Source of the DNA: Cyanidioschyzon merolae
Lineage: Eukaryota
Direction: 5' to 3' (one strand)
DNA: 64,000 nt
NCBI GenBank assembly: GCA_000091205.1
Contig: AP006485.2
Position 1 is the first letter of the stretch. Each line of letters begins with the position of its first letter. The translations under genes and the position numbers were made by a program. Below the pieces are notes generated by a model. The model was not told the origin of the DNA and did no database searches. It was given only the letters and a program-made list of their open reading frames with translations. Shown here in pieces: positions 2,421 through 64,000 of this stretch.

Positions 2421-4379
2421 ATGTCTTTGGAACGCTCTAGCGCACAACGGGTTGATGCTTTGCGCAAACTCCTAGCCGCTCGCGGACTCGATGCATACCT
2501 GGTCCCTTCGGAGGACGCGCATGCCTCTGAGTACGTTGCAGCTTGTTTCCAGCGGCGGGCATTTCTGACCGGATTCACGGGCTCCGCTGGTACTGCAGTC
2601 GTTACGCGCGACCGAGCTTTTCTCTATACTGACGGGCGCTACTTTGTGCAGGCGGAACGGGAGCTCGACCCCAACGTGTGGGAACTGAAGAAACATCTCA
2701 TAGATCCACCGATGGAAGAGTTTTTGGGCACTGTGCTGGCTTCCGGATCGCGCTTGGGGTTTGATCCCGAGACGCTTTCCATCAGTGCCTTCAACAGGCT
2801 GCGCAAAGCGCTGCAGCAGCACGGCATTCACCTGGTTCCTGTTACGAACGAACAGGACGGCACGGAGAGCGCTAGCACGCGCTGCAATTTAGTGGACCTT
2901 GTATGGGGAGCCGCCCGACCAGCGGAACCTCGCTCCGTCGTTTTTCCGCATGCGCTCTGTTTTGCTGGTGAGACGGCAGCGAGCAAGGTGAGCAGGGTCC
3001 TCAACGACATGGCGAAAAACCGGGTGGACTGGCTTGTTGTTTGCGCACTTGATGAAATCACCTGGCTCTTGAACTTGCGCGGAAATGACATCGAATACAA
3101 TCCGGTTTTTCTGGCGTATGTGCTCTTACATCGACGCGCTGTCTCTGAGGCCGAAAACGAGCCCGCTGGTGACTTGTACCTGTATACCGAGCAGGAGCGC
3201 CTCAACGCTGAGGCACGCGAGGCCCTCAAGGCCCTGAAAGCTCATCTAAGGCCGTATGAGGCTATCGCCACCGACCTGGAACAGCTCATCGCTCTGGGGG
3301 ATTGTGTCTGGTATGATCCGAGTCATACGAACTGTCTTATTGGACAAAAGCTCCATCTCGCGGAGTTCAGCGAAGCAACCCTGGACAGCAACCCTGCATC
3401 CGCCAAGCATGCAAGGCATTCAATTTTGGCAAAGGCAACCCCTATCGGCCTGTTCAAAGCTCGCAAGAACGAGACGGAGCTGGCTGGTATGCGCGCTGCA
3501 CACCTGCGGGACGCCGTGGCGCTCTGTCGCTTCCTGGCGTTGCTCGAGCACAAGCTCGTCGAACAGGGCACCACAATAAATGAGATGGAGGCTGCCCAGC
3601 TCCTGGACGAGTTTCGATCGCAACAGGAGCATTTTGTTTCACCGAGCTTTCCAACGATTTCGAGTGCTGGTCCGAACGCTGCGGTTATTCATTACAGGCC
3701 GTGTGCGGAGAGCGCTCGACCGATCACGAGGGATGCGATCTATCTGGTCGATTCAGGAGGTCAGTATCTGGACGGCACTACCGATGTGACACGAACGCTG
3801 CACTTTGGCACGCCTACCGCATTGGAGCGCGAGTGCTTTACGCGCGTGCTCAAAGGCTACATCCAGCTGGAGCAGGCATGCTTTCCTCCGGGTACTACTG
3901 GTCAACAGTTGGACGTTCTGGCGAGGTTGCCGCTCTGGCTCATCGGCCGCGACTATCGGCACGGTACTGGACACGGCGTCGGATGCTTCCTGAATGTGCA
4001 CGAGGGCCCGCAAATGATAAGTCCACGGTCTTCTGCCGGTGAGACGCCCCTGGAACCCGGCATGACTGTAACGAATGAACCAGGCTACTATGAGAACGGA
4101 CGGTTTGGCATGCGATTCGAGAATGTTCTGCTGGTTGTCCCGAAGCTTCATCCCGATCACTGCATGGACCGGAAAGCATTCCTGGGGTTTGAAAACATCA
4201 CGCTGGTTCCAGTAGAGCGCAAGTTGCTGGATACCAAACTTTTGACAGAACAAGAGATCGCTTGGATCGATTCTTATCATCAGAGCGTATGGAAAGCTGT
4301 GGCGCCGCTTGTTGCGGATGACCCGTTAGCAACAAAATGGTTGCATCAACAATGTCGATCATTGCGGGCGACATGTTAA
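2421..4379 (+). CDS. Xaa-Pro aminopeptidase (aminopeptidase P, M24B metallopeptidase)
   Basis: 652-aa uninterrupted ORF. N-terminal creatinase-like region and C-terminal pita-bread domain with 'HGTGHGVGCFLNVHEGP' and 'NEPGYYENGRFGMRFENV' metal-ligand motifs typical of eukaryotic XPNPEP1-type enzymes. Confidence 0.9.
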   Translation: MSLERSSAQRVDALRKLLAARGLDAYLVPSEDAHASEYVAACFQRRAFLTGFTGSAGTAVVTRDRAFLYTDGRYFVQAERELDPNVWELKKHLIDPPMEEFLGTVLASGSRLGFDPETLSISAFNRLRKALQQHGIHLVPVTNEQDGTESASTRCNLVDLVWGAARPAEPRSVVFPHALCFAGETAASKVSRVLNDMAKNRVDWLVVCALDEITWLLNLRGNDIEYNPVFLAYVLLHRRAVSEAENEPAGDLYLYTEQERLNAEAREALKALKAHLRPYEAIATDLEQLIALGDCVWYDPSHTNCLIGQKLHLAEFSEATLDSNPASAKHARHSILAKATPIGLFKARKNETELAGMRAAHLRDAVALCRFLALLEHKLVEQGTTINEMEAAQLLDEFRSQQEHFVSPSFPTISSAGPNAAVIHYRPCAESARPITRDAIYLVDSGGQYLDGTTDVTRTLHFGTPTALERECFTRVLKGYIQLEQACFPPGTTGQQLDVLARLPLWLIGRDYRHGTGHGVGCFLNVHEGPQMISPRSSAGETPLEPGMTVTNEPGYYENGRFGMRFENVLLVVPKLHPDHCMDRKAFLGFENITLVPVERKLLDTKLLTEQEIAWIDSYHQSVWKAVAPLVADDPLATKWLHQQCRSLRATC

Positions 4380-7240: not shown

Positions 7241-8361
7241 TTAGACCGCGGAATGACGATTCGTCGGGAATGGCGAATACGCGGCGATACGCTTTGGACA
7301 CACGCTGGTACCAGCACACGAATCCTGTGCAGCGATGCGAAAAAACGCTCATCTGGAAGCGTACGAGTCGCTGGCACCGTCTGCCTGGAGGCGTATGCGA
7401 ATCCGACCTTGCGTGACCTACAGATGGTTTATAAACCGCTGATTCAAAGCTTTTTGATGAATACGCATTTCATCCTGTTGGGCGCTCCTATCGGAAACGA
7501 AGAATGCCTTGTCGTTGGCTGCATCCACAAGTCTAATGCGGCAGCAGTTGCAGCCAGAACCAATTGTCTGCTCCTTGAGCGCTCGCTCTTCGCTTGACCG
7601 ACTAGGGAACCTTCGACGGATCCGAGGCACAAGATGCACCTTCTGAAACCATACAAGCTACTGTCTTCGGTCTGTGACTGGTCCCAGGACTGATGATTCA
7701 GAAAACGCCTCTTATTGGAGCGTTCCGAGATACGTATCAAGCGCGAAGGCACCTGTCAATAAGCAATTGGCATCGACAGATAGACTCGTGCGCAAGTTGG
7801 AAAACACTGTGAAGCGACGCTACAAGCCCAATGTTGCATCTTGCCACCGATATTTAGAATGATGCACCAGCAGCAGCAACAGCAGCAGCCGGCCGTCTCA
7901 GCTCCAGCACACCCTAGTGGCGAAACGCGACGCTCGTCCGAACACGCGCAAGTCAGTGGGCGGAAGAGCCCTCGAGTCTCTCCGACATTTGCTGCGCTTC
8001 CCGTTTCCTGCGGATGTAGTCCTTCTGCTGGCAAACTTCGTAAGCGTGCCTCAGTTCGGTGCAGTGCCAAGGAAGATAAAAGTGTTCGCGGCGACAGCGG
8101 TTCAGTGGCACGAGAAGGTGCGCGCACCCGTCGCGCCACTCCAAAGGAACCTTATTCGCGATGCAGAAAGCCTCATCAACAGGTTTCGGATCGGTATCGA
8201 CGGATTCGACGTGTCTCCCCGTCATGGAAACCAGTAACGGGGTGCAAACAACTGCAACGCTAACGAGACGTTACCTCGTCGAAGCACTTCTACGGCGTTT
8301 CCCGCGCACCCGCGACGCAGTTGTGTGATGGAACGGCAGCGGCGATGCGTGCCGTCTCGCT

Positions 8362-9060
8362 GGCACGCATCCGAGCACATGAACTTGGAAGTCGGAGGTT
8401 TGATGGATCGTTTACCGCGCACTGAAAAAAAAAGTAAGAAGAGAAAAAGCGCACAATCGGATAACGCTGGACAAAGTAAACGTTTATTCAGTGAACGTAA
8501 AAGCATCCGTGCGCATGAACTTGGAAGTCGGAGGTTTGATGGATCGTTTACCGCGCACTGAAAAAAAAGTAAGAAGAGAAAAAGCGCACAATCGGATAAC
8601 GCTGGACAAAGTAAACGATTATTCAGTGAACGTAAAAGCATCCGAGCACATGAACTTGGAAGTCGGAGGTTTGATGGATCGTTTACCGCGCACTGAAAAA
8701 AAAAGTAAGAAGAGAAAAAGCGCACAATCGGATAACGCTGGACAAAGTAAACGATTATTCAGTGAACGTAAAAGCATCCGAGCACATGAACTTGGAAGTC
8801 GGAGGTTTGATGGATCGTTTACCGCGCACTGAAAAAAAGTAAGAAGAGAAAAAGCGCACAGTCGGATAACGCTGGACAAAGTAAACGTTTATTCAGTGAA
8901 AGTAAAAGCATCCGTGTGCATGAACTTGGAAGTCGGAGGTTTGATGGATCGTTTACCGCGCACTGAAAAAAAAAGTAAGAAGAGAAAAAGCGCACAATCG
9001 GATAACGCTGGACAAAGTAAACGATTATTCAGTGAACGTAAAAGCATCCGTGTGCATGCG
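8362..9060 (+). repeat. Tandem array of ~5 copies of a ~135-bp unit (near-identical copies)
   Basis: Unit 'catgaacttggaagtcggaggtttgatggatcgtttaccgcgcactgaaaaaaaaagtaagaagagaaaaagcgcacaatcggataacgctggacaaagtaaacg(a/t)ttattcagtgaacgtaaaagcatccg(t/a)gcg' recurs with period 132-137 bp starting at 8378, 8515, 8650, 8787 and 8919. Both-strand ORFs over it (8222-8725, 8491-8832) are repeat artefacts. Confidence 0.9.
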
Positions 9061-9149: not shown

Positions 9150-9590
9150 TCGATACCTGTGCTCATTCGAAGGAATAGAGAATCCACAGGAACAGGATAG
9201 AGATGGAACAAGGGGATTCTTGGAGTTTGCCATCCCTGGTATAAACAAAAAACGAAAGAATCCTCTTCTCCGTGATCATCGAGCGAAGAAGGGCACCTGA
9301 CGCAGACGAACGCGAGGAACAGGTGCGTTCAACCAGCGACAACGAACGTGTGGAGCTCGTGATCCGACACTTTAACGTCGTCATCAATAGCAGGAGATGT
9401 ATGGCGTTGAAGACAAGACCCGAGGAGCTGTGGCCAGCGAAATCTGTGGGGCAATCTTTCGGGCTTGACGTGTGTAGCGAGAAACCAAAGCCGATAGCAG
9501 TCGATCGGTCAAAAAAGACTGGTAGGCGTCTGTGCCTGGGTATCTAGTTACACTCCCGCGTTGCGGAACATGTTCGGTACTAGTGAACTG
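9150..9590 (+). pseudogene. C-terminal fragment of a TnpB/Fanzor-like RuvC nuclease (copy A; RuvC-III region, catalytic Asp replaced)
   Basis: ORF 9272-9547 '...ELVIRHFNVVINSRRCMALKTRPEELWP...KPKPIAVDRSKKTGRRLCLGI' aligns with the RuvC-III/C-terminal tails of the copies at 20.7, 29.3 and 61.6 kb ('RMEFVNRDFNAAINTRRC...', '...GGRSKNTGRRLRVG'). Truncated upstream by the tandem array. Confidence 0.55.
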
Positions 9591-19400: not shown

Positions 19401-20599
19401 GAGAATCGAGATTGCATACAGAGAAAGTTCGGATATCGCCAAAAAACCAGGAAAGGAGCAAGTGTTCAAGCGCTCTCTCATATTCTGACTGATGTATTGC
19501 ATGTCTCCCGAGGCGCACTCAACGCCTGTCGGTTCACCGTCGAAATGGAATGTGTTTGTAGAGTTATGCAAGCTCTCCCGGTGATGCACATGATTTGGCC
19601 CTCATGCCCGCCTCTGGTCTTTCAACTCAGTATTGTTTCACCCCTGCTGTGGTGTATGGCAGGCGATCGAAATCCCGATGCAAAGCACTGGAGAGATCGT
19701 GGACGAACTGCCTGTAGGATATGTATTCTTCATTGAACAGTTCAAGGAGGAATGCATTCCTGCTTCCAGTCGGTCATACCGTAGTTCTCAGATAGTTGGC
19801 GAGCGACGACAGAAATAAGCTTAGAGGATCCGCCCCAAAACTGGTATTGACAAAGACTGCCTGCAGTCGATGGTAGATAACGACCCGTTGATCACGTTAC
19901 GGAAAGCAAAAGCGACTCTAGCAGACACATCGGCATGTCTGTGTGTCAACAGCTAGTTGGTGCCGTCCTGAAATCGCTCGGATACCGTCGCAAAAACAGA
20001 GTCCTAGTTCATTCACGGCCATCTTCCATTGAAGTCGCAACGACAGCCTTCTTCCTGGAACGTCGCGATCGGTATGATCCAAAAAGACGTCGGTTCGTTT
20101 TTCCACTCGATGAGACATGTTACGGAAGAAACGGTCAGAGCGTATATGTGTGTTCGCAGAAATGTCCCGTAGTGTGCACTATCGAGCTCGAAGAGATCTA
20201 TGACATCATCATCTGATCTAGCTGCAGTGGATTCCATTTGCGGCCTCAGTTCTTTTCTCTCGTAGAGAAGGCTCATACAACAGCACCCTCTTTTTGTCGA
20301 GTCATCGAAGACTGTTCCCCTGGTGTCTGGCGACGTCCTCCTATTAAAGGACATGTTATTTCACTATTCGCGTTACGGTCGAGCTGTTGCAGACTGTATT
20401 GGTTAGAGCTGGTTTCATTCCTCCGTACTCTGCGTCGTTCAATTCCGTCGAAGGAGCGTTTTCCATCGTGAGACGTAATGATCGTTTCACTGAGCGAATT
20501 GATGAAGCATTCAGCACACGGTGACATACCGGGGCTTTTTTTCTTTCTGCCTCAATTGCTGCTCGATGCGGGAAGGTCCTTATCTCTGGCTATAAACAA

Positions 20600-21045
20600 G
20601 TGCGTTCATTTTCGAAAACCACTAAGAGATGAGCTTGGATATATACTCTAGGACGTCGAGTTGTAGAGAGAGGGATGCGCAGGGCTTCTGCGATAGACTA
20701 ATACGGAGAGCTGGCAGAGCACCAAGTTCCAATGAGGACGCGAGTTCGAGGAATCCCTGCACTGGTGAGAACAACAAGACGCATCAAACGCATGGAGGTT
20801 ATGAAGCGAAACTTCGATGCCACCGTCAACGTCAGACGATGCTTGGTGCTGAAGACGATACCCGAGGAGCTGACGCGATCTACCCCTGTGGGATGGCGTC
20901 TCAGGCTCGAAATTTGCAAGGAGAAACTGAAACAGATAGCAGACGGCGGGTCAATCAAAACCGGGAGGCGTCTGCGGGCCGGTATCAATTTACCTTCCAT
21001 GCTCGTGGGACATTTTTTGTTTCACTGACATGCAAAGTCACCGTT
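20600..21045 (+). pseudogene. C-terminal fragment of a TnpB/Fanzor-like nuclease (copy B) with an in-frame stop and a mutated RuvC-III Asp
   Basis: Frame containing '...TLGRRVVERGMRRASAID*YGELAEHQVPMRTRVRGIPALVRTTRRIKRMEVMKRNFDATVNVRRCLVLKTIPEELTRS...KLKQIADGGSIKTGRRLRAG' is collinear with copy D ('CTLQTVVLEGSQRGASAIEKYGELKQHQMALKARVRGQLALVSSTRGYKRMEFANQDSNAAINIRKC...'). The TAA stop at 20699-20701 replaces a Lys codon. Confidence 0.6.
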
Positions 21046-26304: not shown

Positions 26305-27289
26305 AGAAAGGCAAGAAGAGCGTTGTTTCTAGGCAAACGTAGTGCTGAACGTCGACGGCAGACCGGATTGGTTTGGCGATTTCTCACACAATCACGAAAC
26401 GTTTCCATGAACCGTAGACCCCAGAATGCGGGATGGATGGGTATTGGTAATCGAAAAAAAGTGCACATCATGCTACTGCACCAAGTTCTATTATTCATAC
26501 TTGCTTTCGAATGTGCTGGTCGTTTCGTATGTTCTATCGCGCGCCGAGTGCCTGCTGTGAGCAGCCGCCTTAGCGCCTAGACCGCTGGAACAGATGCATC
26601 ATGGAGACAAGACGGCTTTGCCGTACCAGTGAGGGCGTCGGATCGAGGAACGCTTCACCTGATACGGAGCCGGAGTACATGGTCATTCTGGGCGCTTGCA
26701 AGCTGCGCAGACAGAACGACTGCCTGCAGAAGCTCGAAGCGATATGCTAGGAGTCTACTGCGACCAGCGCGATGCTCAGAAGCAGCCGAACCGCCGCTAG
26801 TCCCAGAATGAAGTGTGTTGCGGACGAGCTGCTCAGATCTCATTACAACATCCTCCACTTTAGAGGCACACGGAGCATGAGCCACGCAGACTCGTCCGGC
26901 TTGCGGGACCTTCCGCCTGTATGGTAAAATTTTCGAAATGCGGATAGCGCTCCCCCATGCAACGTTTACCATATAGAGGAGAAGAACCTGTCCTATCGTT
27001 GTTATTTAATGGTTCGTTTCTGTTCATGGTTCTGTATAGCATATTCGATACGCGCACCTCCATGTCTGGCAGGCATGAGATGCGGCGCGCGTTTCGCAGT
27101 GGAAGAGAAACGCGATCCTCATCGTTATCATGTTGCTCTAAAGTACAAGGTGTCTTTGCGTTGCAGTCGTACCGAACCATAGATTTCAATTCAGTTGTTT
27201 TTCAACCCTCAAGCAAGTATATTCAAGTGATTTCTCGCGGTTTATAGCTGAAGCGTTCAACGTGTGTTCATTTTCAAAAAATAAAAAAG

Positions 27290-29480
27290 GGAAGTTAGCG
27301 AAAAGCAAGTTGAGGATCCCGAAGGGCTTGTGCCGCCGGCTGCCAGAAGAATAAAAAGCATGGCGGAGCAAAGAGCAACAGGAAAAGACGAAGAAGCAAG
27401 AGAAGGAGGCCCTACGCCAAAGGCTGCAAGAAAGACGACACTGCGACGGAATGGTGCTGGAAGCCTGTCTTCTTGGACATATTAATGATCCATACTAGGA
27501 AAAGTTGCGAGAGGCCATCAGAAACCGGACCGAGTCGTTCTCCAGGAGGATTATAAAGTCTTCGTCAGGGCTAATGCATTTGGTGAAGGATATGTACGAA
27601 GACGTGACGGACATCAAAAAAGTCGAGATTGCAGAAGAATTTTGCGACCAGGCCTTTATTCCTCACCTGATGCTTGGCACCGGGGAAACGTCGACGAAAA
27701 ATGAGCGAGTGTATGCCTTCCATGAAAATCACTCCGAATTCCGCTTCGACGGTACTCGACACATGCCTGACTCGAATATTTACACGTACGGAGCAATGGA
27801 GGGCCTCACGAACCTGAAGAACCATATGATCGTGAACCTCGAACGTTTCATGATACGCACCATGTTTGCGCTGAACCCCGGCCTTTCTCGCCAGTGGATA
27901 CGGGCCATCATCAATGGCATCAAGAACGCTCGCCAGAATGGACAGGAGATCGAATTCGTCGACAAAAAGACATCACACAGGAGCATGAATAATGCTTCTG
28001 TAATTCGTGCGGCTATTCAAGAGCATCGTGCGGTCTTGGGGCTTGTCAAATCCAGCTTAAACGGTATCAGATATGAAAAGAAAATGAAGAGAAACGGTAT
28101 ACCCTCGTACTGTAGTATTCCGTGTTTCTGAACAGAGACCTCGAACGCAAGGCGGAGATCGAGCAGAGTGTGAGGAGAAAAATGAAGAGTCAGCGAAACG
28201 GAACGCTGCCCTAATGGGTAAGCGCTTCAATGTCGTTCCGCTATGCAACATCGAGTCAAATGTTGTGACAGTTGGCCCGCTACGTACTTTACAGCAAAAT
28301 GAAGGAGATCTATCCGGACTTCGATGTAAGCAGCAACGAGTTTACGGGCGAAAACCGGGAGACGTACTGGGTGAATATGTTCGATTTCAAACGTCTGAAA
28401 ACGAGCAAACAAAAGTTATTTACTGAGGTGATCGAAGCCGATGGAGCAGCCGTGTGTGTACACGATCGGCGCTTGAAAGTGGATCGTCCCATTGCATCTT
28501 CATGCTTCGCCGTCGGCGAGGCATAAAGAAAAAGAGGAGGCGGATCCTGCGACGCATGCGGTGCAGGATAAAGACTTTGTTGTTGGCGCGGACCCTACGA
28601 ACACGAATATTGTTACCGTCGCTGTACCCAAACATGCGGAAGATGGTATCAACGGCAACTTCAGAAACACATGCGTCTGTTGAGGCTCTCAAGAGCTAGA
28701 GGTTACCGAGAATGCGGTATAATGAATGCGAGGAAAAAAATTGAGAAGTGGAATGCAGGAATGAAGGATCGCCTGGAAGCTATGAGGGAGGTGACGAGCC
28801 GAGAAGCGGGCTTTGAAGCTTTTATGAAATTCATGGAAGTTCGCGTGGCTCACTGGGAGGCGCTGTGGAAAGAGAATACAAAGCCCCAGTGGGCTCGTCT
28901 ACGTATGAACCTGTACCGTAACAAGTAGCATGCATTCGCGAATTTTTTCAATGAGTTGAGTGCCCTGAAGGAGGACGAGAGACAGAGGCTCGTAATAGCA
29001 TGCGGAGCAGGGCGCTGGAAGACCCAAAAAAGCGAGTGGACCAGCTCCAACGACGATGGTGTACAAGTAGTGCGCAACGCGTTTCATTACGATACCTGTA
29101 GATGAGTTTCGAGCATCGTATACGCACCATGAACTGGGATGCACACTTCAGAGAGTGGAGATGGAAAAGTGTCAGAGAAGACCTTGGGATACAGAGAAGT
29201 GCGGAGAGCTGACAGAGCAGCAAACGTAAAGAACGGCGAAAGTTCGTGGACTCCATGCATTAGTAAGTACAACCAACGGCAAGCAACGTATGGAGTTTGT
29301 GAATCGCGACTTTAACGCAGCAATCAATACCAGGAGATGTGCGGTGATGGAAAGAAGACCTCCGGAGTTGACAAGAGAGAATTTTATGGACAACCTTCTA
29401 CGATGGAATTAGATGAGGAAAGTTGAAACCAGTAGTAGGTGGCCGGTCGAGAAAAACCGACAAGGCGTCTGCACGTCGCC
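27290..29480 (+). mobile_element. Most complete copy (C) of a TnpB/Fanzor-like RuvC-nuclease element; coding region is fragmented (pseudogene)
   Basis: AT-richer block in a GC-rich region. Collinear frames 27505-28131, 28272-28526, 28492-28683, 28671-28928 and 29030-29400. RuvC-I-like 'FVVGADPTNTNIVTVAV' lies at ~28576-28625 and RuvC-III 'RMEFVNRDFNAAINTRRC' at ~29290-29340; between them is a C-rich segment 'ELGCTLQRVEMEKCQRRPWDTEKCGEL' (possible zinc-finger remnant). Several frameshifts/stops split the reading frame. K/R-rich N-terminal peptide 'KAARKTTLRR' at ~27360. Confidence 0.65.
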
Positions 29481-31017: not shown

Positions 31018-31145
31018 TCGATTTTTTTTTCATTGACAAAACGTTTCCATTGGCCAGCGTTCTCCGATTATGCGCATTTTCCTTTTCTTACTTTTTTGTG
31101 TTATTTTTTCAGTGCACTGTGAAGTATCTATCAAACACCCTACCT
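31018..31145 (-). repeat. Diverged, inverted dispersed copy of the 135-bp repeat unit
   Basis: The reverse complement of 31028-31125 ('cttcacagtgcactgaaaaaataacacaaaaaagtaagaaaaggaaaatgcgcataatcggagaacgctggccaatggaaacgttttgtcaatga') aligns with the tandem unit core 'cgcgcactgaaaaaaaaagtaagaagagaaaaagcgcacaatcggataacgctggacaaagtaaacgtttattcagtga'. Confidence 0.75.
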
Positions 31146-31331
31146 CCATGTTCCATTACCTATACTTCGTCTCGGATATTCTGGACGTTTCATACGTCCT
31201 ATCGTGCGTGGGATCGATGCTGTGCATCCGCGGCTCGCCCGCGAATGAAGCGCGATCACGACGCGCGCATCTCATGTCCGTTTTGATCAAACGGCTATAT
31301 ATATCAGATTTGACGAATTTTCGGTGGCATT

Positions 31332-31424
31332 GCGGACGTGTCCGAGTGGTTAAGGAGAACGATTAGAAAGCGCCTAGATATCGTTTGGGCTCTGCCCGCA
31401 CAGGTTCGAATCCTGTCGTCCGCG
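31332..31424 (+). tRNA. tRNA-Ser (anticodon AGA) with an ~11-nt intron 3' of position 37
   Basis: GCGGACG/CGTCCGC acceptor stem with discriminator G. D-loop 'GAGTGGTTAAGG', anticodon stem AACGA/TCGTT, loop T-T-AGA-A then the extra 'AGCGCCTAGAT'. Long variable arm GGGC-TCT-GCCC. T-arm 'ACAGGTTCGAATCCTGT'. TATATATA lies ~35 bp upstream. Confidence 0.8.
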
Positions 31425-33599
31425 CATCATTGTTTTTATTCGATACGTGTATCTGCCCTTCTTGTACAAAACAAATCAGCGGATGAAACGCGTATGGCAG
31501 GCATGCACCAATCGGGGTACCGCCCGGCGCTAGGCATCAAAAAGGACTCGAGCGGGGCCTCGCGGCGGACGAGCTCGCCGAGCGCGACACCCGCTGCTGG
31601 ATGCAGCGCTCCGAAGCTGCAGCAGCGCACGAATACGCTGTCTGTATTCGGTAGGCATGGAATATTGTACCGCTCAGATGGTTTCTGCTTTTCGACTTTT
31701 TCCGCTCTTTGCCACAGATGCACAGCGTCGACGTTGAACGCGCTGCTCTTCTGGCTTACGGATTCATTCATTGTTTGGGATTCTCGGTCGTTTATTTTCT
31801 CGGAGTCGCTCTGCTGCCCTTGGCTGGAGGGATTCCTTACGTTACCGGAACCGAGATGAATCGTTACGTCCTCGAACAAGGATCTGGATACATAACCGAT
31901 ATCATGATGCAGTCCATGAGTACGATTGCGGACTCTTCTGCTTGACTCGTGTAGAGCACGTCCAAATCACGAATGCTTCAGCATTTCTATCTCTCTGGCT
32001 CGAGCAAGTCGTGGGCGCAGCAGTGCACCCCGCCGTATTGGCGAGGAAAACGCGTAGTGTCGTTCGTTGATGACTTGCTCACAAGCTCATGCCGAACGGT
32101 CACCGAACTCGTTACGTCAAATAACCGATTCCATTCGAAAGCCAAATTTTCCTCTCTTCGAGATCATCCCTGAGACGGCACTCGGCAGCAGCACGGTAAT
32201 GCGCTAGAGGTATGCTTCAAGAGGCTCCCGTCTCTTCTGTTTACGTGGGGCAGTGGACTTTTTCCGGACCGCGGTCATCGCAGCTATCGCTTCCAATCGA
32301 CAGGGCGCAACCGCTTTGCATGAAGAGAGCGTAGACGATTCGACATTCCCTGACTTGCTGTCCCGCCCGGAATTTCGTCCTGGTACGCACTTCATTATGG
32401 ATAACAGCGCGTTCGATGAATCCTCTGTCGGGCGGCACAACAAATGCTAGCGTAAACGACGGATTCGGTATGCACGAGGCGCGGTTGCACAGAAAAAGCA
32501 GGGGATCCGAGGATGAAGCATCCGGCGCAATAGCGATGGAGAGAAGCGAGGTTAGCCTTCGCAACTAGCTACACGTATGCGTCGAGCGATGAAACAATCC
32601 TGGAAGCATGGCACGGGCGGTGCTGTAGGAAGGCATTGTGATGGGCATTCAGGAACACCTGACCACAGTTACTTGTAACAATTACGAAGGGCGCAACGAG
32701 GCTGCACGCGAACAAATTGAAAATACCAAGCACGGGTCCTAACCTCCACCTGTGCATGCAACGAATCGACAACAGCAGGATGCTGCGAAATCAAGACTTG
32801 CACAGGGCAAACGATACATTCGATTGCCGACAGTGGAGCTGGCGTCACCGGAGTGACCGACTTATGTTAGGCACGATACTAGAGAGAGAGAGCAAAAGGA
32901 TTCAGTTGCAGAAAAAACCGACACAGGCTTTTTCTCATGATAATAGTACAACCACCAGCGTTCACAATCGACGCCCGAACTCGCCGAGCGGACCTCTTCC
33001 ATGCAATGCGCTTATGAATGTACTCATGTTCGGCGCGCGAGGCCCCGATTCAAAACAGGAGCTTTCAAGTCGCTTTTCGATACCTGATTCGCCCCCGAGA
33101 TGGACCTGAAGTCACGTGCCTCTCGCGACTTTACTGCTGCATCCCAGCAATCGCTCCTCCAAGCGGTGCGTATCGCAAATCGACTCTGCACAGAAGGCGT
33201 TTTTGCACCCTTGCCCCTTTGCGTACGGGAACGCTCGCCTCTTGGCATCCTGCGCGAACGCCTCCGGACTCCTGGGCGTACACGTTTGCTCCGCGTTCCA
33301 CTGCCACGAGTCTGAAGCACCACCAAAGCCAAAAGCTGAAACACATCCATAACGAATATGACGTAGCGAGATCGCTTGCGAGATGCACAGCGTACCTGTA
33401 CCGACTTGTGCAAACAAGCCTGGCGGCGTCGTGGTGCACTGCCTCGGCACGCGCGTCCTCGAGCCGACGCCCTCTGTATTATAGAAAAGCAGTTCTGCCC
33501 TGGTGCAGCAACCGCACCGGCGCTATAGACGCCATTGCGGTCGCGTTCGGCAGGCACTAGGCAAAAGATAGGACGTATCAAACGATCAGACTATCCGAG

Positions 33600-33760
33600 A
33601 AGAGGTTTAATTCATGTAACTTGGACGAAGAGGGTTTGATGGATACCTCACCGTGCACTGGAAAAGAAAAGAAAAGAAAGAGCGCATCATCTGAGAACGC
33701 TGGCCTAAGTAAACGTTTTGTCAATGAACGTGAAAAATCGCTTGGGGCACCGCCCTGCAC
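33600..33760 (+). repeat. Diverged dispersed copy of the 135-bp repeat unit, overlapping the predicted 5' end of the downstream ORF
   Basis: 'ggtttgatggatacctcaccgtgcactggaaaagaaaagaaaagaaagagcgcatcatctgagaacgctggcctaagtaaacgttttgtcaatgaacgtgaaaaatcg' aligns with the tandem unit at ~70-75% identity. Confidence 0.75.
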
Positions 33761-39122: not shown

Positions 39123-39275
39123 AGCACGCGCTGCGACGCTACCCTACACCCGTGTCAGGTGAAAGGAGCATACTAAAGTGCTCGGTGTTCCTGGATATCG
39201 ATTTTGTCTGAAAGCTTTTTGGTTTGTGGAATATGTATTCTACCATTGTAACAGGAAGGGCATGAGGTTTCATAT

Positions 39276-40484
39276 GTAATTAAGGGATTCTCGGCCGTCT
39301 TTTCTGACATGCTTGTTCGACGCTCTGCCGTCGAAACGCAGGGAGGCTCGGGAGCCAAGACGATTTGCAACGAAATCGAGCTAGGGCTGGTAAAACAAGC
39401 GTTAGCACGATTTAATGCATACATACAAGCCTTTTGCATGTGCGTACCCTTCCGTGCAGCACGCTCGATTCACGCATGCTTCCAGTTTTCGACCGCTCTG
39501 TTTCAGGGCTGCTCGTGCGCGCACCAATACCTACTGCGTATGCGGCTCGGCGAAGTGCTCAACGCCATCTCTTGACGGGCTGTTCGCAAACTCGTGCCGA
39601 ACACTCACCGGACCTGTCATCTTCAGATGATCATCGATTTCGTTCGATAGACAAACTCGCACCTCGTACCCGCCATCGACGAGGCGTCATTCCGCAGCAG
39701 CTGCATATCCCGCACGGAATATGCTCACAGAAGCGCTCCCGTCTCTTCGGGTGCATCGAAGGGCGTCACGGAGTCGGACGTTGGTCGTCGCTGCGATGGA
39801 TTTCATAGGAGAGCGCGTACACGCTTTTCAGTGGGAAGGCGTCGGGCGGTCGAAGTCCTGCGACTTGTCCTCCAGCCAGGGGACTCGCTCCGGTGTATTT
39901 TGCATCGCGGATAGCATTGCATTCCAGAAACCCTCGATCGATTGGAACGTCGTTCGCCTGCGTGTCCAGCGCGCAGAGTACTCGCTGAGCGGACAGCGCA
40001 GAAGACGCCCCTAGTCGCAGGGTACGCCAACAGGCGCTGAAACGTGTGATGGCATGCGAGGGAAGCTTTCCTCGCCCGTCGAGTGCATATACCTATGCGA
40101 TGAAGCGTACCCTCCGGAGCCTCAGGGCGGTTCTCCGCGGAGGAGGTTTGGTCGACATATAGGACAACGCAACCAGGCACCAGTCGCATATCTGGAAGAA
40201 GGTGCGTCGACGCAGTGTACAACGAACGTGAGAGTGGAAAGCGATGCGTAGGACACAACCAGCGCCTGCACATGAAATGCGTCGCTCTTTGCTGCAATCG
40301 GTGAACTCGTGGCTTGAATGGTGCCAGCACCACCGTTGGACGGCTTCCAAGAGAGCTGGAGGAAAAACATGAACCATTGTATGTAAAGCCGAAGATAAGA
40401 GAGAGAGAGACAGAGTAGGGAAGCAGTCGCAGAGGAAGCCAGCAAAGGCTGGTGTCGTTGACAATTGGAAGAGACCCAAACTTT
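39276..40484 (+). repeat. 1,209-bp direct repeat, copy 1 (~99.5% identical to 48089-49297)
   Basis: Base-for-base alignment with copy 2 at a constant offset of 8,813 bp; only a handful of mismatches. Boundaries are defined by abrupt loss of identity ('catat|gtaatt...aaacttt|agaacg'). The ORFs on it (39309-39575, 39434-39808, 39803-40591) are duplicated verbatim and have no recognisable domains. Confidence 0.9.
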
Positions 40485-47714: not shown

Positions 47715-48088
47715 CAAGTATTTGCTCGGCTCGCAAAGCACGTATTCTTGTCTGATCTAGCCTATCACGCAGCATTGCCCGAGCTCACAGAACGATTCAG
47801 TCTTGGGCGTCGGCACAAAGCATCGCCTCGAGAGCATGCGTTGGAACGCCACGTCGCTTGCGTACTCGACGAAAAGATGAAGTCGCTTGTCCTTCGCCCC
47901 ATCAGCAATGCCATGCCACAAATGGACACGTCATTTCCACAGGCAGAGCGCGTTACCTGCCACAAAGACGCAATTCTTGATCCTGCTATACATGCATTGA
48001 ACTCCACAGTACTCGGGTATTTCGAGAATAAAGTAGTTGGAAGGAGACATGTGGGCGACATGCATTGCAGCACATTTCGTATTCTTAC

Positions 48089-49297
48089 GTAATTTAGGGA
48101 TTCTCGGCCGTCTTTTCTGACATGCTTGTTCGACGCTCTGCCGTCGAAACGCAGGGAGGCTCGGGAGCCAAGACGATTTGCAACGAAATCGAGCTAGGGC
48201 TGGTAAAACAAGCGTTAGCACGATTCAATGCATACATACAAGCCTTTTGCATGTGCGTACCCTTCCGTGCAGCACGCTCGATTCACGCATGCTTCCAGTT
48301 TTCGACCGCTCTGTTTCAGGGCTGCTCGTGCGCGCACCAATACCTACTGCGTATGCGGCTCGGCGAAGTGCTCAACGCCATCTCTTGACGGGCTGTTCGC
48401 AAACTCGTGCCGAACACTCACCGGACCTGTCATCTTCAGATGATCATCGATTTCGTTCGATAGACAAACTCGCACCTCGTACCCGCCATCGACGAGGCGT
48501 CATTCCGCAGCAGCTGCATATCCCGCACGGAATATGCTCACAGAAGCGCTCCCGTCTCTTCGGGTGCATCGAAGGGCGTCACGGAGTCGGACGTTGGTCG
48601 TCGCTGCGATGGATTTCATAGGAGAGCGCGTACACGCTTTTCAGTGGGAAGGCGTCGGGCGGTCGAAGTCCTGCGACTTGTCCTCCAGCCAGGGGACTCG
48701 CTCCGGTGTATTTTGCATCGCGGATAGCATTGCATTCCAGAAACCCTCGATCGATTGGAACGTCGTTCGCCTGCGTGTCCAGCGCGCAGAGTACTCGCTG
48801 AGCGGACAGCGCAGAAGACGCCCCTAGTCGCAGGGTACGCCAACAGGCGCTGAAACGTGTGAGGGCATGCGAGGGATGCTTTCCTCGCCCGTCGAGTGCA
48901 TATACCTATGCGATGAAGCGTACCCTCCGGAGCCTCAGGGCGGTTCTCCGCGGAGGAGGTTTGGTCGACATATAGGACAACGCAACCAGGGACCAGTCGC
49001 ATATCTGGAAGAAGGTGCGTCGACGCAGTGTACAACGAACGTGAGAGTGGAAAGCGATGCGTAGGACACAACCAGCGCCTGCACATGAAATGCGTCGCTC
49101 TTTGCTGCAATCGGTGAACTCGTGGCTTGAATGGTGCCAGCACCACCGTTGGACGGCTTCCAAGAGAGCTGGAGGAAAAACATGAACCATTGTATGTAAA
49201 GCCGAAGATAAGAGAGAGAGAGACAGAGTAGGGAAGCAGTCGCAGAGGAAGCCAGCAAAGGCTGGTGTCGTTGACAATTGGAAGAGACCCAAACTTT
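48089..49297 (+). repeat. 1,209-bp direct repeat, copy 2
   Basis: See copy 1. Identical except for a few substitutions (e.g. 'gattcaatgc' vs 'gatttaatgc'; 'gtgagggcatgcgagggatgc' vs 'gtgatggcatgcgagggaagc'). Confidence 0.9.
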
Positions 49298-60206: not shown

Positions 60207-61316
60207 ATGCCCTTAAACTACTACTTCCGAGTAGAGATAGACGATAGTAGTGAGAGCAGCCAGGCTTCTCTTCAGGGTAGAGTCGAGCGTAAAGCTGCAG
60301 AGATCGAACAACGGCTGGAGAGCGTCTGGGGCTCCTGTTTCTGCGGAAGTTTCGAAGTAAGTTGTCACAAATACGCGCGTTCCGGCGAAATCTACCGGCA
60401 TCAGAGCGATATTAAGGACGTGCAACGCGAGTTGCCTGCTCTTGAGGCCTTTTACACTTTATCCGTACAACCGAGTGGTGTTTTCGCAGATCCCGTCATA
60501 GATGCCTTCGCCAGCGCTTCAGGCGCCTTGGACGGGGTTCGGCGGTCCTCGCTTGGAACAAAGCGGAACTATGCAGTTTCGCTAATCCCGACTTCTACCG
60601 AAACAGCAAAACGTGAGGGGCATAGCTTCGAACTTGCTGTTTTGGAGTGTGCGGAGAACTTCCCGGGATTCATGGAACAGTACACTGCTTCGCTTCCGCA
60701 GCGACCTCATGGCCCAGGAGACGCACAGAAAAATCTCTGGCAGATACGTATGACGAGGAGCGCCAGCATTTTCGAGTACCGCATAGAGGTAGAAAAGGAT
60801 GCTTTAGGCCCGCTCTTCTCAAGGGAGGGAAATCCGCCGTTCAGAGTTGGTCACTCGCGCCCTGAAGAAGCATGCCACCGTAGCACATGGGGCGCATCGT
60901 GTGATCATCTTCAGAGAAGCGACCTTTTCATTGCCATGATCCGCATGATATTAACTTACGAACGGCCGAGGGAGTCGGGTCGGGCATCCAGCCTTTTTAT
61001 TGAGCTGGAGATCCCGTCCCCGGAACAGGGAACCAGCTCCGGGGCTGGTCAGAAATGCGATGATATTTCGCCCGCTCCACGTCTTTGTGCCGATGGCTCT
61101 CTGGAACATCGATTCCTTAAGGCTTTCATAGATAGCATGTTACCCACACGCCTCGTCGAGTATCAGTCTACACTGCAGCTTTGTTCTCTTCGCAGAAAAT
61201 TCGCCCGCGTGCTGCTCGACTTCAAGATTGTCGATGGGAGTCATGAACTGCCCCCAGACGTGGGTCGTCCTACGCCTCTTCGCATCGCAATGTGCTGGCA
61301 GATGCTATTCAGCTAA
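60207..61316 (+). CDS. Hypothetical protein (369 aa)
   Basis: Long ORF with host-like composition and no recognisable motif. Confidence 0.25.
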   Translation: MPLNYYFRVEIDDSSESSQASLQGRVERKAAEIEQRLESVWGSCFCGSFEVSCHKYARSGEIYRHQSDIKDVQRELPALEAFYTLSVQPSGVFADPVIDAFASASGALDGVRRSSLGTKRNYAVSLIPTSTETAKREGHSFELAVLECAENFPGFMEQYTASLPQRPHGPGDAQKNLWQIRMTRSASIFEYRIEVEKDALGPLFSREGNPPFRVGHSRPEEACHRSTWGASCDHLQRSDLFIAMIRMILTYERPRESGRASSLFIELEIPSPEQGTSSGAGQKCDDISPAPRLCADGSLEHRFLKAFIDSMLPTRLVEYQSTLQLCSLRRKFARVLLDFKIVDGSHELPPDVGRPTPLRIAMCWQMLFS

Positions 61317-61429
61317 AAACTCGACGATGAACATTGACGATGGCATCGACGTGTCTCGATGCCTTTGCGGCAGCTAGTGGCACTCGAGATTGGCGTACTG
61401 GTCGCTTCCCATATCGAACATACACTCAC

Positions 61430-62640
61430 TATCAGTGAAACAAGAATCTTTTCACGACCATGGAGGGTAAATATATCTACCCACGCGCAGACGCCTCCCA
61501 GTGTTTTTTGACCGGCCTCCTGCTATAGGTTTGAGTTTCTCCTTGTACACTTCGAGCAGCAGAGGCTGGCCCACAAAGTTCGCTCTTGTCAACTCCGCGG
61601 GTCTCTTCTCCGGCACCAAACATTTCCTGATATTGATAGCAGCGTTGGAGTCCTGGTTCGCGAATTCCATGCGTTTATAGCCTCTGGTTGAACTCACCAA
61701 TGCAAGCTGTCCTCGAACTCGCGCCTTCAGAGCCATTTGGTGCTGCTTCAGCTCTCCGTACTTTTCTATCGCCGAAGCGCCCCGCTGGCTGCCCTCCAGC
61801 ACGACCGTCTGAAGTGTACACCCAAGCTCACCCCCTGGATTTTTTACTTTTGAACATGGAAGCGCATCTTCGAGGCCTAGGGTGGGGACCTTCCCGAAGC
61901 GAGAAGGTCTTGTGGAAGAAAGTCGACATGTGCCCCCAGGCTCACCGTGTACTGAATGTTTCAGCGATTCGCCCAGTGGAGTGATCATTACTTTTCAGAA
62001 TACAAAAGACTCCTTCTATGGGGATGAAACACAGAGTCTTCCGAGTAATGAAAAGCAGCTTTGCCCCGACAGAATTCGCATAAACTCGAACGCGTATGGG
62101 CTCGCGAAATGCCATGTCGTTCAATAGTAGAAAGTTGCCGGATGTAAGAGGAAAAGTCTTCAATGATTCGACAAATTGGGTGCTGTTGTATGAACCTTCT
62201 TTACGAGCGGAACTGAGGCCGCCGAAGGAATGCATTCCAGCTTGAACAGATGATGATACCCATGTTCTCTTCAAGCTCGATCGTGCATTCCACGGGCTGC
62301 CTGCTCTACGAATACCAATATACGCCTCGACTGTTTCATTCGAAGCAAGTCTCATCCACTAAAATAACAAACTGACGCTCCTCTGCTTTATTAGCCTCGC
62401 GAAGTACCAGGAACACCGTCGTTAAAATATCGGTGGAAGATGGCCCTGAATGGGATTGGACTTTTTTCGACTGTATCTAGTGATTGCATGACCGCAAGAA
62501 CATACTGTTCAGAAACAGAAACGCCCGTGGTGGCAACTACCTCGCTTTTGCTGCCTGCAATGTGATCAACGAGTCGCCTTCTAATACTCACCCGCAAGCG
62601 GTCTTTGAGAATCCCGGTTTTCGGCAATGAGCGCATCTAT
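61430..62640 (-). pseudogene. TnpB/Fanzor-like RuvC nuclease copy D (3' half is one 178-aa ORF with intact RuvC-III Asp; upstream frames are broken)
   Basis: ORF 61452-61988 '...LGCTLQTVVLEGSQRGASAIEKYGELKQHQMALKARVRGQLALVSSTRGYKRMEFANQDSNAAINIRKCLVPEKRPAELTRANF...KLKPIAGGRSKNTGRRLRVG'. Upstream ORFs 61942-62355 and 62391-62636 are in other frames. ~75% nt identity to copy C over the RuvC-III region. Confidence 0.6.
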
Positions 62641-63020
62641 TCGTTTCTTTCCGTGTTCCTCAACCACTTGCGTACCGTCGTACGACTGACCAGAATGCAT
62701 AATGTAGTTCTCGTTGCTCTTTTAGTAAAGAATATATCCTACAGGCGATGCGTCAGCGATCTATACAGTAAATTGCATTGTGATGTCGATCTCCTGCTAT
62801 ATACCACAGCAGGGATGGAACAAATCTGAGTAGAGAGTCTGTAAGCGAGCCTGTTGGCATACGAACACTATGTCGGATGCGCGAGGTATTCGCTTCCCTC
62901 AATGGTGAAACGGTTTTCGGTGCAAAGGCGTGTGTGCGCTGTAGCTCTTGCAACGGATGCGTCTATTGATTGCATGTGTGTTTACGTCACTGTCGTCGTA
63001 ACTGATTCATTGAACGCTGC

Positions 63021-64000
63021 CTAGTGCAGCGCAGAAATGGTTTCTTGGAATGGTTTCGTGAGCCGTTGACCAGCCTGGTCATAATTATGTATTTCTGATT
63101 CAAGCATTTTCATTTCAGACTCGTAATTGATCTTCTCCGCCCCGACAACCATGTGACGGAACGTCATCTCATCTTGGTAGGTATCGCTGCGGACGCGAAC
63201 ACGAAACAGAAACTCACCAAAATGTGCTTGTTCCAGGATTCTCTGGTACTCCTCAGAATCTGTTTCTTTGATTCTTTTCAGTTCCTCTGCGCTGTAGCCT
63301 CCGAAAATGATAGGACCTACTTCGTCGTAACAGTTAAGCCAGTGGCTTCCGGTAGCGTCCATTGCTTGAATGCTGAATATATAGCGGGGGGTAGGTTTCA
63401 CGAGCTTATCGCAGCGCTCACATCGATACATATCTGGAGACTCTTCAATAACTTTTTTCTTGCAGTCTGGACAGCTCAGATACCATGGTGGGCGTTCTTC
63501 ATCCTGTTTGATGTGGCTTATAGTAGCGCGAACCGTGTAGTATGACGCACCGGGTGCAGAGTGAGGATCCTCACCGATGTGCTCGCTCTGCACTTGGGCG
63601 AAGGTTTTGCGTTCACTGTTTCGGATACGACTCTCTGTTCGTGCTCCACCAAGCGGTGTGCCGCCAAGATCCTGAAACTCAGCGCCATGCCCTTCCGAAT
63701 CGAACCAGCCCCGCAGCTCGAAGGCCTCACGGATGTTAGGATTCACCTCGACGTGAGAGCTGGGTGTTGTACTGAGGCTGACGCCATTGAAATCACCGCG
63801 TTTTGCGGATTTGACGAGCAACACGGGACGGTCATCTTCATTGGAAAAGAGAGAACGAGCTCGCTCACCCCAAATCGTTAACGCAACACTGCATCCAGTA
63901 TCATCAATCAGTTTGACTTCCCGTTTTGCAACCGGCAGGCCTGTCGTCTTGGAGCTGATTTCTCCAACTTCACCGATGTCCAAAGCGATGCCAATGACAT
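63021..64000 (-). CDS. RPA1: Replication protein A large subunit (RPA70), C-terminal DBD-C portion; gene continues beyond the window end
   Basis: Zinc ribbon 'WYLSCPDCKKKVIEESPDMYRCERCDKLVKPTPRYIFSIQAMDATGSHWLNCYDEVGPIIFGGYSAEELKRI' followed by 'FRVRVRSDTYQDEMTFRHMVVGAEKINY' is the canonical RPA70 DBD-C. The upstream part matches DBD-B. Confidence 0.8.
   Translation of the reverse strand, partial: VIGIALDIGEVGEISSKTTGLPVAKREVKLIDDTGCSVALTIWGERARSLFSNEDDRPVLLVKSAKRGDFNGVSLSTTPSSHVEVNPNIREAFELRGWFDSEGHGAEFQDLGGTPLGGARTESRIRNSERKTFAQVQSEHIGEDPHSAPGASYYTVRATISHIKQDEERPPWYLSCPDCKKKVIEESPDMYRCERCDKLVKPTPRYIFSIQAMDATGSHWLNCYDEVGPIIFGGYSAEELKRIKETDSEEYQRILEQAHFGEFLFRVRVRSDTYQDEMTFRHMVVGAEKINYESEMKMLESEIHNYDQAGQRLTKPFQETISALH

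Follow-up and report, generated by a model that had tools for sequence, protein, structure and literature searches.

Why do two decayed repeat copies in Cyanidioschyzon merolae, one on each strand, keep a similar block of sequence at their 3' ends and then lose all resemblance at a single base? The copies, here called B (plus strand) and D (minus strand), lie in a 64,000-nt stretch of contig AP006485.2 (assembly GCA_000091205.1), which is the window referred to throughout and is numbered from its first letter. The first-pass annotation had placed the repeat in the TnpB/Fanzor family and had read the end of the block in two ways, as the right end of a mobile element and as the junction between the scaffold of an omega-RNA and its guide. 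We found that the block does end at the true right end of a mobile element. Taking all the evidence together, we consider it probable that this element is a dead transposon that once carried a DDE_3 transposase and a Fanzor1 nuclease, and that its tail includes a maintained hairpin.

The repeat shared by B and D is 1.4 kb long, and its last 67 nt are the block singled out by the first-pass annotation. In B, the block reads ...GGGAGGCGTCTGCGGGCCGGTATCAATTTACCTTCCATGCTCGTGGGACATTTTTTGTTTCACTGA, with its last base at 21028; both copies stop at ...GTTTCACTGA, the last base of D being 61432 on the minus strand. A blastn alignment of the two copies, with 68.5% identity over 1434 nt, stops exactly at 21028/61432, and the flanks that follow (CATGCAAAG... 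in B and TAGTGAGTG... in D) are unrelated. Relatives were gathered by protein similarity and not by their termini, making the sampling unbiased for the tail. Six proteins and their contigs, together with 80 of 371 metagenome relatives, gave 86 loci, which with the window collapse to 50 distinct insertions. The B/D tail is present in 15 of these 50 insertions, found in the window and in related public contigs and referred to below as class i, and in all 15 similarity is lost directly after the terminal TGA. Mean pairwise identity among these copies is 46% in the last 40 nt versus 26%, the random level, in the first 40 nt outside, so the flanks are not alignable past the boundary. The terminal T, G and A are kept in 13, 15 and 13 of the 15 copies, respectively. 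Near-identical copies diverge at the same base: the short class-i element at L057:2013-3402 is 98-98.6% identical to those at different loci, L006:1-1390 and L085:1-500, up to the terminal base, and unrelated beyond it. Because 15 distinct insertions share the end base, the boundary is more than an accident of two copies, and the end of the B/D block is confirmed as the true right end of a mobile element.

The block itself has two parts. Its first 22 nt (GGGAGGCGTCTGCG...) occur in every family member and code for ...TGRRL; the final Fanzor codons that the members share in the block are ...GGRSKxTGRRL. The last 45 nt belong to the class-i lineage only, and a profile of the 15 tails matches only class-i tails (E<=10). 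One might suppose that this tail is simply the C terminus of the Fanzor protein (...YLPSMVVKRFLFH and a stop) and that homology stops with the open reading frame (ORF), its conservation being purely protein-coding. In B, the Fanzor frame does continue to the terminal TGA at 21026-21028, and the GRRL frame is in the same phase in six other copies. Alike peptides recur among these seven, of the form ...(I/V)(N/Y)LPSM(V/L)V..FLFH and the stop, and the B/D differences cct/ccc and ttt/ttc are synonymous. Third codon positions, however, are the least variable in the last 48 nt of the 15 copies (0.28/0.24/0.21 by codon position), opposite to the coding part in the preceding 75 nt (0.20/0.19/0.28). 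Distant Fanzor1 homologues have their C terminus about 40 residues earlier, which puts the tail outside the conserved protein, and the stem described below carries compensatory changes. We therefore regard the protein-coding explanation as very improbable. The absence of a third-position excess supports conservation of the 45-48 nt class-i tail as nucleotides, not as protein, which is what the first-pass annotation had argued, in part on a mistaken ground. It had put the stop codon of D 25 nt upstream of the block; the premature TGA, caused by a 2-nt indel, is at 61454-61452, which is within the block, 20 nt short of its end.

What kind of element ends here? The placement in the TnpB/Fanzor family held: by profile and by the predicted fold of its full-length relatives (650-750 amino acids), the family of B and D is Fanzor1. 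The family profile (A2) matched the Parasitella parasitica Fanzor1 structure 9cf0 in the PDB at E=4.5e-11. An AlphaFold (AF2) model of the relative P0009, with a predicted local distance difference test score of 71.5, matched SpuFz, PpFz and GtFz at E=7e-17 to 8e-14, with Cas12 far behind. For SpuFz 9ceu, the match had E=6.9e-17 and template modeling scores of 0.54/0.65, and Foldseek gave E=7e-17 to 9ceu/8gkh. Pfam scans of the raw ORF pieces of B and D had no match, nor did single-sequence PDB and Pfam searches with the 574-residue ORF of L073; the assignment came only from the family profile and the predicted fold. Neither window copy is itself a working nuclease gene. B and D keep only the equivalent of residues 665-752 of P0009, where the RuvC-III motif lies (RNFDATVNV in B and NQDSNAAINI in D); the 3' part of D translates as a TnpB/Fanzor-like RuvC-III region, ...GYKRMEFANQDSNAAINIRKC.... 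RuvC-I and RuvC-II are not retained in either copy, and the full catalytic set is thus missing. Of the Fanzor gene, the last ~130 codons are kept, with stops and frameshifts throughout.

The first 1 kb of B and D is a decayed DDE_3 transposase of the Tc1/mariner/IS630 type. A homologous intact ORF of 255 amino acids in L002 has a weak Pfam DDE_3 match (E=0.006, under the curated cutoff) and matches the DDE_3 protein of L087 in BLASTP at E=4e-16. The L087 protein in turn matches PF13358 (DDE_3) at E=2.7e-26 with 92.6 bits, and also HTH_Tnp_Tc3_2. The parent architecture is seen in L029, which has the B/D left end, a DDE_3 remnant, a near full-length decayed Fanzor gene and the class-i tail. Against L029, the alignments of B, D and L057 each fall into two blocks, with positions 1601-2998 (about 1.4 kb) absent and the junction identical in each; a single deletion derivative has therefore spread to many sites. 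Further short copies in L086, L022 and L063 measure 1.41-1.44 kb end to end and the one in L049 about 1.52-1.55 kb, while the left ends in L085 and L006 lie off the contig. The 98-98.6% identity of copies at different loci, noted above, indicates that this nuclease-less derivative was copied recently. B and D themselves differ by about 30% from each other and from the consensus. Judged by these alignments, B and D are pseudogenised deletion derivatives, ~1.41 kb long, of a 2.8-kb DDE_3 and Fanzor1 element, and not Fanzor genes.

A distant relative, with a Fanzor protein 31% identical, occurs at L087:559-3460, L088:295-3196 and L089:1-2779 (GCA_013573075.1, GCA_013572825.1 and GCA_013572995.1). 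These elements have an intact 301-residue DDE_3 gene 38 nt upstream of a 652-residue Fanzor1 gene on the same strand, 29-bp inverted repeats (TACTCCGACAAGGACATTTTGTTACAC) with TA on both sides, and ~225 nt of 3' non-coding sequence between the Fanzor stop and the right end. The existence of intact two-gene units in a distant organism indicates that the unit of transposase and Fanzor is ancestral. In the history that we favor, the full-length form of the B/D family, about 2.8 kb, would have carried the DDE_3 gene and then a Fanzor1 gene whose frame reached the last three bases (TGA). One ancestral deletion would have removed ~1.4 kb of the Fanzor gene, and the short form would then have spread to new sites, presumably mobilised in trans. 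In active ancestors, the 3' end would have been part of the Fanzor transcript.

Both ends of the element appear to retain traces of a terminal inverted repeat. The left end reads TCTTTCAACTCAATTTTGTTTCAC(G), and the 9-mer TGTTTCACG is present at positions 17-25 from both ends in inverted orientation; by eye, 17 of 27 positions match between left and right. At the right end, the inner 9 nt of the repeat (CGTGAAACA) survive and are followed by TTTT, a direct TGTTTCAC and TGA, the outer half of the repeat having been replaced by a palindromic copy. In B, the 5' arm of the resulting hairpin, together with the preceding C at 21004, is the reverse complement of the left-end 9-mer, that is, of the inner part of the repeat. 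The left repeat of B also resembles, by eye, the 29-bp repeat of the distant intact relatives. Upstream of the left end, most copies share the flank consensus T-T-A-Y-R-G, with G at -1 in 9 of 10 copies, Y at -3 in all 10 and A at -4 in 8. This flank is where a target-adjacent motif would lie. Since the left end aligns by eye with the L087-type repeat, TA|TACTCC...TTTTGTTACAC, a simpler reading may be a TA target with the opening 3 nt of the inverted repeat next to it. TA is present in the left flank of 4 of the 10 copies and NA in 8, and in no copy does the right flank match the left.

The inverted 8-mers at the right end form a hairpin of 6-8 bp that ends 3 nt before the boundary, with arms GTGGGACA/TGTTTCAC in B and GTGAAA/TTTCAC in D, and it is present in the minimum-energy fold of B. 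Across the 15 copies, the six hairpin pairs are paired in 84% of cells, compared with 42-54% when the partner is slid. Double-sided changes number eight (UA to CG in four copies, AU to GC in four cells), and 16 cells hold a G-U pair on the sense strand; of 500 shuffles, 3-5 do as well. In an alignment-free arm-swap test, native arms averaged -5.6 kcal/mol versus -4.2 for swapped arms, with 11 of 2000 permutations as good. The terminal hairpin appears to be selectively maintained, on evidence that we call moderate because the sample is small and related.

As an alternative, the block may be purely a DNA-level end, a truncated repeat with a fold-back palindrome and no RNA function; the palindrome might be a binding or cleavage site of the DDE_3 transposase, or the scar of an aberrant end repair. 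A DDE_3 gene is indeed part of the element, both here and in the intact relatives with their clear 29-bp inverted repeats, and the left-end 9-mer recurs inverted at an equal distance from the right end. Additionally, Tc1-type termini read CAGT, and the element ends, (Y)AGTC...CACTG, are similar. Compensatory changes and G-T pairs confined to one strand are nonetheless unexpected for a double-stranded protein site, and the right side has no TA duplication, so that we think this explanation rather unlikely.

Several results weigh against our overall reading of the tail as a transposon end with a maintained hairpin. All class-i copies examined, L029 included, are pseudogenised. RNAalifold, applied to the last 190 nt of the 15 copies, predicted the hairpin and little else, with a total of -1.3 kcal/mol, and in a sample of 15 related sequences kinship alone can yield such covariation values without structure. 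The candidate helices GCAG/CTGC, CCGGTC/GACTGG, GGGTA/TACCC and GGAGG/CCTCC gave no covariation above shuffles, and for the helices P0, P1, P2 and P2alt between 185 and 420 of 500 shuffles reached the observed covariation. Folding energy is ordinary, with mean z-scores of -0.31 (last 130 nt) and -0.34 (last 67 nt). The inverted repeat is partial (27 of 2000 shuffles in a local-alignment test, p ~0.014). No target-site duplication of 2-6 nt was found under several boundary choices, nor was the TA duplication expected for Tc1/mariner, the right flank beginning with A, C or G and without T-A. A further point concerns the omega-RNA reading in particular: with part of the terminal inverted repeat inside it, the block has a cause of conservation other than RNA. 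Rfam searches gave no match at the gathering threshold in the window, barring one tRNA, or at E<=1 in the block region. Of the covarying structure proposed for the class-i 3' end, one 6-bp terminal hairpin with compensatory changes stands, and no larger conserved structure was found.

A much clearer structure is present in a sister lineage, whose tail acts as a positive control for the covariation analysis and gives a clear signal. This lineage, class ii, comprises 35 insertions of Fanzor-only elements of at least 3.1 kb, in which the last ~130 codons, as far as GGAGGCGTCTGC, are 70-72% identical in nucleotides to those of B and D. Their ORF ends in ...GRRLHVSWRRFV and a stop, followed by a conserved non-coding tail of ~75 nt, after which conservation falls to the random level. 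Individual class-ii copies fold into a terminal hairpin of 15-19 bp whose 3' arm is G/T-rich and carries the G-U pairs. A covariance model built from four copies has 107 nt and three helices, two of them covarying; the structure that it describes begins within the ORF, of which it covers the last 34 nt, and extends to the element boundary. The model finds 35 copies in the loci (for example, L084:1613-1719, L076:1312-1418, L038:1935-2041 and L073:3333-3439) and at E<=1 matches neither the window nor any class-i locus. In an alignment fitted to the model, a procedure that favours structure, 23 of 34 pairs are changed on both sides and 84.6% of cells are paired (39-51% when slid), values reached in 0 of 500 shuffles. 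The arm-swap test, which uses no alignment, gave 18 of 2000. RNAalifold predicted nothing on a MAFFT alignment of the class-ii hairpin, in which the arms are misaligned. We consider the 107-nt element to be the best omega-RNA candidate of the family, and unlike their class-ii sisters B and D have none of it, the class-i tail replacing it from the loop of the first helix onward. We also considered, and then gave up, a derivation of the class-i tail from the class-ii left end by inverted copying: 13 of 2000 shuffles matched the consensus alignment, and the tail profile matched only class-i tails (E<=10). The two ends of class-ii elements are not significant as inverted repeats of each other (1144 of 2000 shuffles).

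Does the right end of B and D, then, mark the junction between a scaffold and a guide? The SpuFz1 element of S. punctatus is bounded by 30-nt inverted repeats, and its 75-nt omega-RNA scaffold spans the 3' repeat (Saito 2023, PMC10432273). The guide consists of the 14-15 nt beyond that repeat, and short "ghost" loci retain the inverted repeats and the omega-RNA region (PMC10432273). Since the SpuFz1 scaffold spans the 3' inverted repeat and the guide adjoins it, the location of the proposed junction is right in principle, and the abrupt stop of conservation fits this precedent; the other part of the proposal fares less well, B and D being decayed and only the 6-bp hairpin covarying. It is possible, though we stop short of calling it probable, that the class-i hairpin is what remains of the guide-proximal stem in an omega-RNA that used the flank as its guide. 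The junction in B and D is most likely a relic, given that no cognate intact nuclease is present in the data examined.

A bolder version would have B and D each encode a functional omega-RNA, with a scaffold ending in ...CACTGA, a Fanzor protein acting in trans, and the host flanks (CATGCAAAGTCACCGTTAGC in B and TAGTGAGTGTATGTTCGATA in D) as candidate guides. The family is Fanzor1, the boundary is sharp with variable flanks, and a hairpin with sense-strand G-U pairs sits next to the would-be guide. The amplified derivative keeps the 3' 400 nt, as the SpuFz1 ghost loci do, and 98.6%-identical copies at separate sites speak of recent mobility. Set against these points, no intact Fanzor gene with a class-i tail was found among the 50 distinct insertions from the 86 loci and the window, and the abundant near-intact lineage uses a different structured tail whose model has no window match. 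B and D differ from each other and from the consensus by ~30%, and covariation does not extend beyond one 6-bp stem. Functional omega-RNAs in B and D seem to us improbable.

A related speculation is that the 1.4-kb elements are "guide-donor" parasites of a Fanzor1 transposon, spreading by homing and not by DDE transposition. The minimal omega-RNA would then be the last ~100 nt, with helices P0-P2 and the hairpin that replaces the outer half of the repeat, and a Fanzor1 protein in trans, loaded with this RNA, would cleave empty sites beside a TA(YRG)-type motif. This scheme would account for the lack of a target-site duplication as well as for the recent copies of 98.6% identity; we give it only a small chance of being right. 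The relic transposon end remains our preferred reading of B and D, whose features are collected in Table 1 with those of two further copies in the window.

Table 1. Fanzor-related elements in the window and their component features.
Feature	Position	Strand	Description
Copy B	19618..21028	+	~1.41-kb internally deleted class-i element, from left-end alignment of 10 copies and right-end comparison; left end known within ~3 nt, with 19615 a possible start should the YRG triplet be part of the inverted repeat
B left terminal repeat	19618..19642	+	TCTTTCAACTCAGTATTGTTTCACC, with TGTTTCAC at 17-24 from the end
B DDE_3 transposase remnant	19659..20618	+	Decayed; motifs DETC.., LLLKDM.., FIPPYSASFNSVEGAFS
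B Fanzor1 3' coding remnant	20629..20983	+	About the last 115 codons before the tail, with stops and frameshifts; tblastn with P0009 669-752
B RuvC-III-like motif	~20804-20842	+	KRNFDATVNVRRC
B class-i tail	20984..21028	+	45 nt; reads as INLPSMLVGHFLFH and a stop; no codon-periodic conservation
B terminal hairpin	21005..21025	+	GTGGGACA (21005-21012), loop TTTTT, TGTTTCAC (21018-21025); TGA 21026-21028 then ends the element
Copy D	61432..62838	-	Same deleted element as B; left end known within ~3 nt
D conserved block	61432..61498	-	Arms GTGAAA (61455-61450) and TTTCAC (61440-61435); terminal TGA 61434-61432
Copy A	9319..9586	+	5'-truncated fragment, last ~270 nt; divergent B/D-type tail ending ...CTAGTGA
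Copy C	26378..29478	+	Decayed, nearly full-length class-ii Fanzor1; related to B/D at 29130-29478

Copy D lies between two convergent genes (window 60207-63983), at a distance of 183 nt from the stop codon of an RPA1-like ORF (63021-63983, minus strand) on one side and of 116 nt from that of a 369-residue ORF (60207-61316, plus strand) on the other. Its site is found, filled and 99% identical, in the metagenome contigs L007, L008 and L001, and among the fetched loci only D has orthologues, every one of them filled. Copy C contains the motifs GADPTNTNIVTVA, VDEFRASYTHHELGC and VNRDFNAAINTRRC, with all RuvC motifs present and many stops. As far as GGCGTCTGCACGT, its 3' coding part is common to B and D; beyond that point it diverges from its relatives and has neither the B/D tail nor the class-ii structured tail. 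A third, far more divergent Fanzor-like fragment, broken by stops, lies at 766-1574 on the plus strand (tblastn with P0009 residues 478-748, 31-35% identity). In L043, L049 and L055 (~3332-3517), class-ii and class-i copies stand tail to tail with their 3' parts ~185 nt apart, an arrangement that could reflect nested or targeted insertion. The source organism, an intron-poor eukaryote, recurs in several metagenomes of the Joint Genome Institute (JGI), and a literature search for Fanzor in thermoacidophilic red algae returned no paper.

The window also holds other repeats. A tandem array of five to six 135-bp units occupies 8291-9058 on the plus strand, ~260 nt upstream of copy A, and single related units of the 135-bp type occur at 31029-31203 (minus) and 33567-33735 (plus). 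Judged by eye, the unit looks similar to the class-ii left-end region in reverse complement (TTTTTTTTCAGTG...GGTAAACGATCCATCA...CCAAGTTCAT). Between the two inverted single units, at 31332-31424 on the plus strand, lies the sole Rfam match in the window, a 93-nt tRNA (48 bits) whose length allows an intron. A 300-nt direct repeat, 99% identical and unrelated to the Fanzor elements, is found at 39269-39568 and 48082-48381, 8.8 kb apart.

For the window, the present result mainly tidies the annotation by identifying dead DDE_3 and Fanzor1 copies. If the hairpin and the flank did form an omega-RNA, the result would be a very compact guide-proximal module, with the ends of the Fanzor ORF, the transposon and the scaffold no more than 3 nt apart, and the short copies would be natural nuclease-less "ghost" elements spreading without target-site duplications. 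The class-ii 107-nt covarying element, which lies outside the window, is the more useful lead for Fanzor biology.

Among known systems, SpuFz1 offers the closest parallels in fold and layout. The B/D family shares with it the Fanzor1 fold, inverted repeats at the two ends (partial and putative in the B/D family) and conservation that falls off sharply at the right end, and the short non-autonomous class-i derivatives keep the ends and the 3' region in the manner of the SpuFz1 ghost loci. The differences are several. The full element of the B/D family also carries a DDE_3 transposase, and its Fanzor ORF reaches the last base, whereas the SpuFz1 ORF stops ~80 nt before the inverted repeat. The right repeat is cut to 9 nt and a palindromic hairpin, and all copies with the class-i tail are decayed. 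Finally, the SpuFz1 omega-RNA has been characterised, whereas an omega-RNA at the class-i end would be no more than a candidate.

Tc1/mariner (ITm, DDE_3) transposons with a Fanzor1 passenger have reportedly been described. The B/D family resembles these elements in having the DDE_3 gene directly upstream of Fanzor1 on the same strand, as do the intact distant relatives with their 29-bp inverted repeats and TA duplications. The window copies differ: their right end shows no TA duplication, their inverted repeat is partial, and they are internally deleted and pseudogenised. In IS200/IS605 elements, the TnpB omega-RNA lies at the right end. A class-i omega-RNA would be placed likewise, its coding region running over the 3' end of the nuclease ORF up to the boundary and the flank serving as guide, and as in those elements no duplication is visible at the insertion sites of the B/D family. 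The latter is, however, a eukaryotic Fanzor1 family with a DDE and not an HUH transposase, and its class-i members have no detectable pseudoknotted multi-stem scaffold and no Rfam match. Fanzor1 genes on Tc1/mariner-type elements, omega-RNAs at right ends and nuclease-less derivatives are thus all already known; what sets the B/D family apart is its unusual truncated right repeat.

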